Source: an uncultured Acidimicrobiaceae bacterium (GTDB lineage: Bacteria > Actinomycetota > Acidimicrobiia > Acidimicrobiales > Bog-793). Taken from it: a stretch of DNA of 64,000 bases. The stretch spans positions 430,663-494,662 of the forward strand of contig CAWISR010000002.1 of the NCBI GenBank assembly GCA_963838845.1. Reading direction: 5' to 3'. Positions 11,869-22,086 of the stretch are shown piece by piece. Within the stretch, counting starts at the first letter, position 1. Every line of letters starts with the position of its first letter. Under the pieces are notes generated by a model. It was not told where the DNA came from. It saw only the letters and a program-made list of their open reading frames with translations, and ran no database searches. Both the position numbers and the translations under genes were made by a program.

Positions 11869-11946
11869 CTCAGTCGACGCTCGTTCGTTTCGACGCTTCC
11901 CAAGGTGCTTCGTGGATACAGTGCAAGGCATCGCGATGAGCCGCCA

Positions 11947-12447
11947 ATGACCGAGCACGGGAGCGATGTCGACCGGCGCGCGGAGTGGGAGTCCTTGAAG
12001 GCCCGCTACCTCCGACCGCTGGACGCACGACCGGTCTCGTCGGCCCGAGGTCTGCACCACTTCGCCTTGCTCTGCAGCGATGTCGAACGGACCATCATCT
12101 TCTACCAGGAGCTTCTCGAGTTTCCCCTGGTCGAAGTCTTCGAGAACCGGGACTATCGCGGATCCACCCACTTCTTCTTCGATGTGGGACACGGCAACTA
12201 TCTGGCGTACTTCGATTTCCCCGGTCTTGACCTCGGGGACTACCGCGAAGTGCTCGGCGGCCTCCATCACATCGCGATTTCCGTTACTCCCGAGCAATGG
12301 AACCGGCTCGTGGCCAAGCTGGAAGCGGCAGGAATCGAGACCCTCATCGTGGACGGTTCATCGGTCTACTTTCCCGGACCAGATGGCGAACGACTCGAAT
12401 TGCTCTCGTACCCGCTCAACGACATGTACGGGACGATCGTCGGCTGA
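11947..12447 (+). CDS. VOC/glyoxalase family protein
   Basis: GLHHFAL...FYQELL, GLHHIAI, SVYFPGPDGERLEL. Confidence 0.85.
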   Translation: MTEHGSDVDRRAEWESLKARYLRPLDARPVSSARGLHHFALLCSDVERTIIFYQELLEFPLVEVFENRDYRGSTHFFFDVGHGNYLAYFDFPGLDLGDYREVLGGLHHIAISVTPEQWNRLVAKLEAAGIETLIVDGSSVYFPGPDGERLELLSYPLNDMYGTIVG

Positions 12448-12506: not shown

Positions 12507-12789
12507 CGCAGCGTCACCTTCGTGAGCGTCCCCGACCGGCATGTCTGAAGGAGCGGGGCCGTGTCAATCCTCGCGACAGGCGGTTCTTCCTGCTCGATGC
12601 TCTGGGACTCGACGACACAACCTGAGTGAAGGCGCGCGCCATCGAGGCGTCGGGGTCAAGGTGGAGCGCCCGTAGCAATGCGAGGACGAACGACCTTGAC
12701 GCCGGCGCCGAGTGGCGCAGGATGTCTCCGGTTGTGGTCGGCGGTCGCTAAGCGCCGTTGGGTTCGCACCAAGTTCTCTCGCGTCAGAG

Positions 12790-12955
12790 ATCGTGAGAGC
12801 GGCAAGCTCGGTTGCCGAGGCATGTCTTCGCTGAGTCGCTCAGCATGGTGTGTTCCGGCCGCGAACGGGCGGGCTCAATCACTTTGCCGGCTGCGCCACT
12901 CCTTTGAGTGGGAGCCCTGCCGATCGTCGAGCTCGCGCCCGTTCGCGTCCGAGCG
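12790..12955 (-). ncRNA. Predicted bridge RNA/seekRNA of IS copy 1 (3' end uncertain, may extend toward 12561)
   Basis: 11-bp closing stem (12861-12871 with 12936-12946) around an internal hairpin flanked by CGAUCGGCA and AAAGUGAU, which match the two target halves; a second hairpin loop carries AGACAUGC, matching the circle junction. Confidence 0.75.
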
Positions 12956-13966
12956 TCACGCCGCCTTGGGGCTCTTGAGACAGCGGATCTCTCCGTCTCT
13001 GAGCCCGTAGTAGACGAGCGTGAGGACCTTGCGGGCGATGGCGACAGTCGCCTTTTTCTTGCCGCGCCGGTCGGCGATCGACTGGAAGGCGGCTTCGAAG
13101 ATGCCGGCGTGGTAGCGGGCGACGGTCTCGACTGCTGCCCAGCGCACGAGGCGCGAGCCTTGTTTCGTGATCTGACCGCGACGGACCTTGGTGTCGGACT
13201 CGCGATGAATCGGCGTGAGCCCCGCCCACGAACAGAGTGCCTCTGGTGAGGGAAAGCGCGAGACGTCGCCGATCTCGGCGACGAAGATCGCCGCCATCAC
13301 TTCGCCGACGCCATAGATCGCCTGCACGGCGTTGTAACCGGGATCGTGGCGCAACAACAAATGCGTCTGGCGGTCGATCTCGAGGATCTCGCGGTTGAAG
13401 AAACAGACGAGGTCGCGCAGCACCTCGATGCGGTGCGAATAGGCGCGAGGGATCTCGAGCGAGTCGAACTGGGCGGCACCGCCGACGCCCCACATGTCGT
13501 TGCGAACGGGCAGCACACCGTTCTTCGCGAGGACGGCGTGTGCCTGAGCCTTCACGCCCGTGCGCATCGACGAGAGCTTGTTGCGGAATCTGACGAGCTC
13601 TCTCAGCTCACGGAGCTCCGGTGGCGCGATCCACGCCTCGGCAAGACGGCCGAGGCGCAACAGGTCGGCGAGGTCGTGCGCGTCGCGCTCGTCGTTCTTC
13701 ACGCGGCGGTGTCCCCAGTCGTTTCCCTTCGGGTTGGCGAGGTGGACGACATAACCGAGACCCTCGAGCAGGTCCGCCGCCCAATACCAGCCGTAGGTGG
13801 CTTCGAGGATCACGTCGCTTCCAGCCGGCGCCGCCAACACCGCGGCGGCGAACTCACCGGGATCGTTGTCGATGCGCACGCTCGAGAGCTGCTCTCCGCC
13901 TGCGTCCATGCGCACGATCACCGAACGGCGGCGGTGCAGGTCGATGCCGACGTACTCTCGTTCCAT
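12956..13966 (-). CDS. IS110 family transposase/recombinase
   Basis: YVGIDLH, VILEAT, KNDERDA (DEDD); C-terminal AEIGDVSRF...GLTPIHRESD...KQG. Confidence 0.96.
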   Translation of the reverse strand: MEREYVGIDLHRRRSVIVRMDAGGEQLSSVRIDNDPGEFAAAVLAAPAGSDVILEATYGWYWAADLLEGLGYVVHLANPKGNDWGHRRVKNDERDAHDLADLLRLGRLAEAWIAPPELRELRELVRFRNKLSSMRTGVKAQAHAVLAKNGVLPVRNDMWGVGGAAQFDSLEIPRAYSHRIEVLRDLVCFFNREILEIDRQTHLLLRHDPGYNAVQAIYGVGEVMAAIFVAEIGDVSRFPSPEALCSWAGLTPIHRESDTKVRRGQITKQGSRLVRWAAVETVARYHAGIFEAAFQSIADRRGKKKATVAIARKVLTLVYYGLRDGEIRCLKSPKAA

Positions 13967-14276
13967 CGGGGCCTCCCTTGTCGTGGGACTGGTGTGAGAA
14001 ACCCCAGTTTCGCCATTGAGACTGGAACTCTCACGGGGAGCGGAGGCCCCGCTCCTTCATCGCATCACTTATGCCACGCACGGGTTAATCGTTGCGGCGG
14101 CGTTATGGGCTACTTACCAGAGTGCAGATCGCCGAATCCGGCGTCGATCGAGGCTCAGATTCGGGTGGGGGGTCGAGGTGCGGGGATCGGCAGTTATGCG
14201 CTACCACCGCTTCGGTTAATCGGCCGTCTCATCTCTCACCCAAGAGGGTGCGGCCTCTGACGAGTCTGACGCCGGG

Positions 14277-14684
14277 TCAGCGTTGGGTTGGTTCTCCAGG
14301 TGCGATGTCGACGAACAGCTCGACTTCGTTTCCGTCGGGATCGTGCATGTGCATTCCTTTGGTGTTGGCGTGGCGCAGCTCGAACAAGATGACGACGCCG
14401 GCGGCTTCGAGCTCGCTTTTGGTGGCGTCGAACTCGTCGAGCGAGTCACCGACTTTGAACGCGACGTGGGCGAGGCCGGCGGTGTTGCGATCGGAAGAGG
14501 GTCCGTTCTTGCCGAGTTCCATGACCGCGAAGTCGTGATGGTGACCGAGGGTGAAGAAGACCATTGGTACCGGGTGGGCCGTGCGGCCGGCAATGGGGAT
14601 CCCCAGTGTCTTGCCGTAGAAGTGTTCGGCGCGTTGCGCATCGCGCACTTTGACAACGACGTGACCGAGTTCCTGAATCCGCAT
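14277..14684 (-). CDS. VOC family protein (catechol dioxygenase-like)
   Basis: LGHVVVKV, HHDFAV, GLAHVAF, DPDGNEVEL. Confidence 0.85.
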   Translation of the reverse strand: MRIQELGHVVVKVRDAQRAEHFYGKTLGIPIAGRTAHPVPMVFFTLGHHHDFAVMELGKNGPSSDRNTAGLAHVAFKVGDSLDEFDATKSELEAAGVVILFELRHANTKGMHMHDPDGNEVELFVDIAPGEPTQR

Positions 14685-14893
14685 CACGGCCTCACGGGCT
14701 GTCGGCCGAGCTTGGCGAGGAGTCGATCGGTGGGCGGCGCGCTCGAGTCGATGGGGACCTCGGCGCCGAACGCTCCGTGGGCGCGATAGAGGTCGAGGGA
14801 GATTGGACGGTAGAAGTTGTCGAGCATCGCTGCCACGGCCGGATCGATCGTCGCATCGGCTCCGAGCGCGGTGGCGACGTCCCATGTGTGCAC
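14684..14893 (-). pseudogene. C-terminal fragment of a TIGR03086/MDMPI-like metal-binding protein
   Basis: VHTWDVATALG...FGAEV...APPTDRLLAKLGR with the N-terminal part missing. Confidence 0.65.
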
Positions 14894-20342: not shown

Positions 20343-20611
20343 AGCGTGCGTCCCCGACCGGCATGTCTGAAGGAGCGGGGCCGTGTCAATCCTCGCGACA
20401 GGCGGTTCTTCCTGCTCGATGCTCTGGGACTCGACGACACAACCTGAGTGAAGGCGCGCGCCATCGAGGCGTCGGGGTCAAGGTGGAGCGCCCGTAGCAA
20501 TGCGAGGACGAACGACCTTGACGCCGGCGCTGAGTGGCGCAGGATGTCTCCGGTTGTGGTCGGCGGTCGCTAAGCGCCGTTGGGTTCGCACCAAGTTCTC
20601 TCGCGTCAGAG

Positions 20612-20777
20612 ATCGTGAGAGCGGCAAGCTCGGTTGCCGAGGCATGTCTTCGCTGAGTCGCTCAGCATGGTGTGTTCCGGCCGCGAACGGGCGGGCTCAA
20701 TCACTTTGCCGGCTGCGCCACTCCTTTGAGTGGGAGCCCTGCCGATCGTCGAGCTCGCGCCCGTTCGCGTCCGAGCG
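20612..20777 (-). ncRNA. Predicted bridge RNA/seekRNA of IS copy 2
   Basis: Same sequence as 12790-12955. Confidence 0.75.
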
Positions 20778-21788
20778 TCACGCCGCCTTGGGGCTCTTGA
20801 GACAGCGGATCTCTCCGTCTCTGAGCCCGTAGTAGACGAGCGTGAGGACCTTGCGGGCGATGGCGACAGTCGCCTTTTTCTTGCCGCGCCGGTCGGCGAT
20901 CGACTGGAAGGCGGCTTCGAAGATGCCGGCGTGGTAGCGGGCGACGGTCTCGACTGCTGCCCAGCGCACGAGGCGCGAGCCTTGTTTCGTGATCTGACCG
21001 CGACGGACCTTGGTGTCGGACTCGCGATGAATCGGCGTGAGCCCCGCCCACGAACAGAGTGCCTCTGGTGAGGGAAAGCGCGAGACGTCGCCGATCTCGG
21101 CGACGAAGATCGCCGCCATCACTTCGCCGACGCCATAGATCGCCTGCACGGCGTTGTAACCGGGATCGTGGCGCAACAACAAATGCGTCTGGCGGTCGAT
21201 CTCGAGGATCTCGCGGTTGAAGAAACAGACGAGGTCGCGCAGCACCTCGATGCGGTGCGAATAGGCGCGAGGGATCTCGAGCGAGTCGAACTGGGCGGCA
21301 CCGCCGACGCCCCACATGTCGTTGCGAACGGGCAGCACACCGTTCTTCGCGAGGACGGCGTGTGCCTGAGCCTTCACGCCCGTGCGCATCGACGAGAGCT
21401 TGTTGCGGAATCTGACGAGCTCTCTCAGCTCACGGAGCTCCGGTGGCGCGATCCACGCCTCGGCAAGACGGCCGAGGCGCAACAGGTCGGCGAGGTCGTG
21501 CGCGTCGCGCTCGTCGTTCTTCACGCGGCGGTGTCCCCAGTCGTTTCCCTTCGGGTTGGCGAGGTGGACGACATAACCGAGACCCTCGAGCAGGTCCGCC
21601 GCCCAATACCAGCCGTAGGTGGCTTCGAGGATCACGTCGCTTCCAGCCGGCGCCGCCAACACCGCGGCGGCGAACTCACCGGGATCGTTGTCGATGCGCA
21701 CGCTCGAGAGCTGCTCTCCGCCTGCGTCCATGCGCACGATCACCGAACGGCGGCGGTGCAGGTCGATGCCGACGTACTCTCGTTCCAT
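20778..21788 (-). CDS. IS110 family transposase/recombinase
   Basis: Protein identical to 12956..13966. Confidence 0.96.
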   Translation of the reverse strand: MEREYVGIDLHRRRSVIVRMDAGGEQLSSVRIDNDPGEFAAAVLAAPAGSDVILEATYGWYWAADLLEGLGYVVHLANPKGNDWGHRRVKNDERDAHDLADLLRLGRLAEAWIAPPELRELRELVRFRNKLSSMRTGVKAQAHAVLAKNGVLPVRNDMWGVGGAAQFDSLEIPRAYSHRIEVLRDLVCFFNREILEIDRQTHLLLRHDPGYNAVQAIYGVGEVMAAIFVAEIGDVSRFPSPEALCSWAGLTPIHRESDTKVRRGQITKQGSRLVRWAAVETVARYHAGIFEAAFQSIADRRGKKKATVAIARKVLTLVYYGLRDGEIRCLKSPKAA

Positions 21789-22086
21789 CGGGGCCTCCCT
21801 TGTCGTGGGACTGGTGTGAGAAACCCCAGTTTCGCCATTGAGACTGGAACTCTCACGGGGAGCGGAGGCCCCGCTCCTTCATCGCATCACTTTTGTGACA
21901 TTCGGGAAATCGCGTAAGAGGCTGTGATCCGTCGGCCCAAAGCTAAGTTGAGTCGTGGGTTTACGAAACACCACATCGCCCGGACAGAATTAAATTGCGT
22001 AACCAGCCCAACGTGGGGTCCGTCGGCGGGTTAAGTAGCCCATTCGAACTCTCTTCGACAGAGTCAGTAGTCGTAGGCTGCCTCGT

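Follow-up and report, generated by a model that had tools for sequence, protein, structure and literature searches.

Bridge RNA and seekRNA systems have been described since 2024 (PMC11208160, PMC11187229), and the statements on published systems made here follow the accessible text of the papers cited. For IS621, the layout comprises 7 + 2 nucleotides on the 5′ strand of the target loop, 5 + 2 + 2 handshake nucleotides on its 3′ strand, and 3 + 2 + 2 handshake nucleotides on the 3′ strand of the donor loop (PMC11208160 supplement). The first exchange is between the top strands, which are cleaved 3′ of the core, and the handshake bases pair with the noncognate DNA afterward (PMC11208158). Single-strand transfer has been reported in preprints for CazIS110-1 (10.1101/2025.10.25.684509) and for IS621. 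Among IS1111 elements, 93% have a predicted RNA in their right end (PMC11208160), and a reversed guide order has been described for them together with a rule of 7/3, or occasionally 6/3, terminal extensions and no target duplication (PMC11187229). We found no account of a handshake or of strand order for IS1111-type elements in the accessible text of the literature searched; one may stand in figures, such as Extended Data Fig. 10c of PMC11208160, in supplements to preprints, or in papers behind subscription.

The element, its recombinase, and its relatives

An earlier note on the 64,000-nucleotide stretch of DNA analyzed here (the window) had described two insertions of a single element. Both are real (Table 1), but the count was too low: the source genome (2.78 Mb) holds five near-identical copies, all inserted at their target sites in the same orientation and differing at no more than three positions, as well as a paralogue (L182, C3:13.7–15.3 kb) with 58% identity to the element. 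The target guides of L182 differ from those of the five copies and match its own, different site, and on sequence the two would form a natural orthogonal pair. Three of the five copies lie in one orientation within 24 kb (G000 C2:428.5–452.5 kb), a clustering that may reflect local hopping or an accessory region.

Table 1. Features of the element and its predicted RNA (window coordinates)
Feature	Position	Strand	Remarks
IS copy 1	12543..14065	minus	1,523 bp; left end starts ATGCGA, right end stops GAC; without target duplication
IS copy 2	20365..21887	minus	1 difference from copy 1
IS110-family recombinase, 336 aa	12956..13966	minus	D9, E55, D92, D95, and S257 invariant in 14 homologues
Left subterminal inverted repeat	14045..14059	minus	15 bp; 6 nt inside left end
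Right subterminal inverted repeat	12546..12560	minus	15 bp; 3 nt inside right end
TTGACA, predicted −35 box of circle-junction promoter	12562..12567	minus	no consensus −10 recognized
Left target half at copy 1	14066..14071	minus	
Right target half at copy 1	12533..12542	minus	ATGC in right half is target derived
Predicted bridge/long seekRNA, ~150 nt	12806..12954	minus	closing helix 12954–12949/12811–12806
Right-target guide, 5′ strand of target loop	12917..12926	minus	complements target top strand +2 to +10; 12917 mismatched to +1 here
Left-target guide, 3′ strand of target loop	12878..12885	minus	identical to target −6 to −1 plus AT brought by element
Right-donor guide, 5′ strand of donor loop	12845..12853	minus	CAU pairs with element's first 3 nt; weak segment 12853–12851 past 3-nt bulge
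Left-donor guide, 3′ strand of donor loop	12822..12827	minus	identical to element's last 4 nt plus AT
Handshake-like bases GCC	12819..12821	minus	12820 follows target +4, not donor +4

Homologues were collected as 182 loci, in 120 of which both ends could be parsed (62 were unparsed). After removal of L165 and L173 (doubtful ends) and of L127 and L139 (no RNA anchor), 116 loci remained, six of them from the source genome, and these fell into 71 clusters at 90% RNA identity. The left-end pattern imposed an A at +1 and a G at +3 as well as the beginning of the repeat; it left +2, +4, +5, the left flank, and the whole right side free. Because the RNA anchor imposed CAYG and the TG within the left-target guide, the invariance of these two is circular. 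A later set of 25 loci yielded 12 that could be parsed (31–57% identity) and 13 that could not; the ends of L197, L199, L200, and L206 were located partly through guide matches, and these four are therefore not fully independent. Proteobacterial loci with ATG-started repeats were judged by eye (four of seven parsed). Throughout, −1 stands for the target base that adjoins the left end of the element, +1 for the A of ATG at either junction, and top for the gene sense strand. Named homologue records are mostly from Acidimicrobiia; a match was present in 13 of 301 genomes surveyed from the class and in 10 of 401 surveyed from the phylum. Close relatives occur in cultured hosts (Rhodococcus opacus, L183, 56% identity). 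Among viral contigs, 51 pattern matches included no relative of the element.

The inverted repeats are perfect over their 15 bp, with 6/3 terminal extensions, and the noncoding ends measure 100 nt on the left and 416 nt on the right, the right being the longer in 71/71 clusters. TTGACA stands 24 to 25 nt from the right end in 59/71 clusters with no clear −10, and this conserved hexamer is likely a −35 box at the circle junction. The contig sets of four public runs (X1, X2, X3, and X11) list no end-to-end joint of the element, contigs being a form of data that drops rare forms. A second palindrome, with GTCAAG…CTTGAC arms, lies ∼110 nt inside the right end (window 12655–12700, minus strand); it is present in 37/71 clusters versus 0/71 coding-region controls and occurs once more in the genome, at C2:634342, outside all six element copies.

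The surroundings of copy 1 are ordinary. It is flanked by two glyoxalase-family genes (window 11905–12447, plus strand, and 14277–14885, minus strand), with an adenylate cyclase-TPR gene, a cupin gene, and a TetR gene nearby. A 50-bp segment elsewhere (G000 C3:1547954–1548003) matches the right flank of copy 1 at 96% and carries neither the element nor the left target half. Two ideas on the nature of the target were rejected. The five rebuilt sites have no other genomic copies except three short flank matches, which does not make them a repeat family, and no run of flank-to-flank complementarity that would form an attC-like hairpin was seen in 69 clusters.

The recombinase carries the domains PF01548 (DEDD RuvC-like) and PF02371 (Transposase_20) and scores 203.8 bits against NF033542 (cutoff 140). 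Its catalytic-serine motif ends in S-D rather than S-G, invariantly across 14 aligned rows, and it departs in these last two positions from the IS1111-group motif GL-P----S(T)G. Other traits of that group are present, namely the perfect subterminal repeats (15 bp, compared with ∼11–13 bp or more as the mark of the group) with 6/3 extensions and no duplication, the long downstream noncoding region, and a predicted RNA in which the top-strand match precedes the bottom-strand match. In a quick, midpoint-rooted tree of 23 rows, from which the references IS1111, ISEc11, and IS621 are absent, the element groups with ISHvo9-type proteins (SH-aLRT 92, a branch not starred) and apart from ISPpu24 and three other proteobacterial elements with subterminal repeats. 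The closest named element among those listed is ISHvo9 of Haloferax volcanii, at 31% identity. By sequence, we regard the element as IS1111 type in anatomy and as a divergent branch near ISHvo9 in its protein. A search of the PDB for a solved member with subterminal repeats returned none, the entries being ISCro4, IS621, and 9mty only. Among the entries listed for Supplementary Table 1 of PMC11208160, two relatives lack an ISfinder name.

Compared with ISEc11, ISKpn4, ISPa11, and ISPst6 as presented in the accessible text of PMC11187229, the element has the same subterminal repeats, short left and long right noncoding ends, RNA just past the stop codon, top-strand match 5′ of the bottom-strand match, and absence of target duplication, and its 336 aa are likewise typical. 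It differs in having 6/3 rather than the usual 7/3 extensions and S-D rather than S(T)-G; neither a donor loop nor a handshake is described for those four elements in that text. The protein had been called a compact RNA-guided recombinase of 336 aa. RNA guidance, with a target readable from the RNA, is supported; the size is ordinary, IS1111 transposases having 330 to 350 aa (PMC11187229).

The predicted RNA and covariation of its guides with DNA

The region downstream of the recombinase gene folds as a two-loop structure (z = −3.66; 0/200 shuffles as stable), as had been proposed, with an 11-bp stem (12946–12936/12871–12861) and a hairpin (12844–12830), both on the minus strand. The stem and the strings CGAUCGGCA (12926–12918), AAAGUGAU (12885–12878), and AGACAUGC (12827–12820) all lie on that strand where the earlier note had placed them. 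In an RNA alignment of 72 rows, two-sided changes occur at 16 of 22 consensus pairs, and 93.4% of cells are paired versus 80.6% in shuffled (0/500) and at most 44.9% in slid alignments, the structure having been derived from this same alignment. A scan of the region against Rfam gave no match at E up to 1, and the single RNA run examined holds contigs of an ∼93%-identical relative only. Because its bases vary with the landing site in dozens of relatives, as set out below, this short folded stretch very likely belongs to the known bridge/seekRNA class of guide RNAs.

The two target guides together spell a 16-nt site, to which the five insertions conform at 15, 15, 15, 14, and 13 of 16 positions. 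On both strands of the 2.78-Mb genome, there are no unoccupied sites with 15 or 16 matches, five with 14, and 59 with 13. A lack of covariation between guides and target among homologues had been named as a refutation; such covariation is present, and three guides vary with the adjoining DNA in the 71 clusters, where RNA–DNA concordance, judged against expectations from 2000 permutations, takes the form of three diagonals. In the first, 12925–12920 are complementary to target +9 to +4, and 12918 is complementary to +2; thus, 12920 agrees with +4 in 67/71 clusters (25.7 expected), 12922 with +6 in 65 (31.3 expected), and 12923 with +7 in 57/70 (20.1 expected). The second comprises 12885–12882, which equal target −6 to −3, with 12882 agreeing with −3 in 70/71 clusters (25.9 expected). 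In the third, 12826–12824 equal the element's last three bases in 67, 70, and 66 of 71 clusters, the expected value for 12824 and the last base being 24.5. The right-target guide stops at +3, leaving the core positions unpaired, in L072, L075, L076, L114, L115, L117, L135, L183, and L185.

The partner donor guide had been called only a weak match, and this holds across the family: CAU (12847–12845), which fits the invariant ATG, is the only part in register. A possible second segment follows a bulge, and given a bulge of 3 nt, 12851 complements donor +4 in 44/71 clusters (22 expected). This weakness would be expected if only a processed RNA of ∼85 nt (12946–12861) containing the target loop were used, with the protein reading the inverted repeats and the second loop being dispensable. 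The accessible text of PMC11187229 reports that an 82-nt ISEc11 seekRNA suffices for transposition. However, the covariation of 12826–12824 with the end of the element implies selection on the donor loop, and CazIS110-1 needs its full RNA according to the accessible text of 10.1101/2025.10.25.684509. A role for the target loop only is thus, in our estimation, quite improbable.

One locus of the later set, L196, has two right ends 88 nt apart, and past the first of them the sequence found behind the left-donor guide of its own RNA is repeated. This locus looks as though the element had recombined with its guide-coding DNA.

Junction bases and base 12820 of the donor loop

The earlier note had inferred a 4-bp ATGC core, duplicated at both insertions and common to donor and target, and had read AGACAUGC as a guide for the donor only. 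The string itself is present at both junctions of all five copies, and its match to the predicted donor junction is true in all of them. It is not a duplicated core, however, because the two junctions agree at the fourth base in only 46/116 loci (at the second base in 79/116), and +4 is common to donor and target in only 30/71 clusters. The repetition of ATGC in this element is fortuitous. This correction leaves the predicted sequence of the circle junction as it was.

The left junction reads AT in 116/116 loci, and the right junction reads AT in 78, AC in 35, and otherwise in three, with guide base 12918 following the right junction (58/65). The core dinucleotide AT, shared in this element, differs between junctions in 38/116 loci, and both core positions differ in L189, L199, L200, and L206. 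AC on the left and GT on the right are found in L189, L200, and L206 (ISHvo9), and the distant relatives, ISHvo9 included, appear by sequence to have no shared core at all. Position +1 differs between junctions (A left, G right) in L189, L193, L198, L200, and L206, which places the crossover to the left of +1. The targets are not without constants: TG at −2/−1 and G at +3 are fixed in 116/116, with variable neighbors, and are possibly PAM-like bases read by the protein.

The final C of AGACAUGC, base 12820, argues against a pure donor reading of the string. It equals target +4 in 65/71 clusters (23.8 expected) and donor +4 in 27 (21.0 expected), and where donor and target differ at +4 (41/71 clusters), it equals the target 39 times and the donor once. 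Although the string matches in every copy, a shared ATGC core with a pure donor guide is therefore highly improbable. We interpret 12820 as a putative handshake-like base on the bottom-strand guide. By contrast, 12877 matches neither DNA (0/71), which leaves the target loop without a handshake.

The clusters are related, and the counts above are to be read with this in mind. On a FastTree tree, target +4 changes only six times and 12820 ten times. In our reading of this tree, five of the six changes at +4 are matched by the same change at 12820, and the sixth is L064, whose entire right flank mismatches the guides. With two to four independent pairs per base for 12820 and target +4, the sign test lacks the numbers to reach significance. 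For 12918 and target +2, the listed independent pairs number five, with 2.9 going the same way and 0.5 the other way.

The 12 later loci extend the pattern. At +1 to +4, their donor-loop guide equals the target at 28 of 29 informative positions and the donor at none, the single miss being a misparse of L196, whose guide does match. The last two nucleotides of their left-target guide equal the donor in 9/11 cases and the target in none. Among the proteobacterial loci, judged by eye, the donor-loop extension leans to the target (5/5 in L211, partially in L209, L213, and L214); in L211 and L213, which have subterminal repeats, the left-target guide past the junction follows the target, not the donor.

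The tracking of +4 might also arise indirectly, if 12823–12819 paired with the right-target guide at 12921–12917, an RNA–RNA contact in an RNA that still guides the target but is silent on strand order. Both 12920 and 12820 track target +4 and are thus complementary by construction, and covariation at +4 cannot separate the two readings. At 53 positions where the right-target guide is noncomplementary to the target, 48 donor-loop bases are identical to the DNA and one to the RNA complement, a comparison that is weak in that nearly all cases lie at +1/+2, where the base also equals the donor, and several registers were mispicked. In addition, the junction asymmetry sits at the DNA level, and the IS621 handshake bases, found by a like signal, were confirmed as RNA–DNA pairs (accessible text of PMC11208158). 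On balance, we consider an RNA–RNA origin of the signal unlikely.

Proposed strand order and its implications

The reading we favor, with a probability of roughly 65%, is a two-loop bridge RNA with the geometry of IS621 on the opposite DNA strand and the bottom strand exchanged first. The guide layout is 7 + 2, 6 + 2, and 3 + 2 + 2(3), with top and bottom swapped relative to IS621, and because these lengths fit the IS621 layout with its strands swapped, the bottom strand is likely the first to be exchanged. As in IS621 (accessible text of PMC11208160, PMC11208158, and PMC13626964), there are two internal loops, four guides, and matching guide lengths, and the handshake base was found through covariation with the noncognate DNA. 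Unlike in IS621, the RNA is downstream, the guide order and strands are reversed, the handshake is in the donor loop only, and the subterminal repeats are long. Here, donor and target frequently carry unequal natural cores, a mismatch that the design code for IS621 does not accept.

By this mechanism, a circle would form whose junction completes a promoter, and the resulting RNA would load the recombinase. The target loop would open the target, pairing 7 nt + 2 on the top strand and 6 nt on the bottom, while the donor loop would read the element's last 3 to 4 nt and the protein would read the inverted repeats. The bottom strands would be cut just left of +1 and then swapped, and a cut at that place would give a left junction with bases of the donor and a right junction with bases of the target, which is the pattern observed. 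The 3′ guide of the donor loop would then pair with 4 to 5 nt of the incoming target, favoring insertion. Replication or repair would fix the bottom-strand product, so that no duplication would arise and no shared core would be needed.

A top-strand transfer with the cut after the 2-nt core, as in IS621, would be expected to give the opposite junction asymmetry. A top-strand cut placed after +1, however, would also give AT on the left and AC on the right. The same two-loop RNA might then act in a top-strand-first, double-strand recombination, with the donor-loop extension serving the second (bottom) exchange or recognition of the right junction at excision. Circle formation by ISEc11 needs target-derived flanks (accessible text of PMC11187229), and IS621 excision substrates bind across both loops, both of which agree with such a scheme. 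Nevertheless, the difference at +1 (A left, G right) in the five loci named above runs counter to it, and the 45 highest-ranking pairs include no signal across the junction for either top-strand guide. We therefore hold a top-strand-first reaction to be rather improbable and retain the bottom-strand-first reading. Single-strand transfer, as reported for CazIS110-1 and IS621, would explain the one-sided inheritance of junction bases seen here; the transfer reported for CazIS110-1 in the accessible text of 10.1101/2025.10.25.684509 is of the top strand, whereas the bottom strand is inferred here.

ISHvo9 and other haloarchaeal IS110 elements share with this element the 6/3 ends, the guide order, and a donor-loop extension that matches the target, and ISHvo9 differs from it in having its RNA upstream of the gene and AC/GT junctions. 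In the haloarchaeal loci L199, L200, and L206 (ISHvo9 included), the RNA is upstream of the gene and the IS1111-type guide order is kept, indicating that guide order goes with the clade and not with RNA position.

The element adds a further bridge/seekRNA system that can be read from sequence, on a divergent branch in actinobacteria, and its relatives with mismatched junction bases are a natural series that bears on which strand is moved, on the role of the second loop, and on the need for a shared core. For use as a tool, the fixed TG and G mark limits on programmability, and because these bases are fixed in all targets, ∼11 positions look freely programmable. We lean slightly toward a broader proposal, in which elements with subterminal repeats (IS1111 type) would run the IS621 reaction on the opposite strand, with a functional donor loop, a one-sided target handshake, transfer of the bottom strand, and no need for homology at the crossover. 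If true, this strand flip would account both for the reversed order of the guides and for the long-standing disagreement about target duplications, and bridge editing would be freed from the shared-core constraint.
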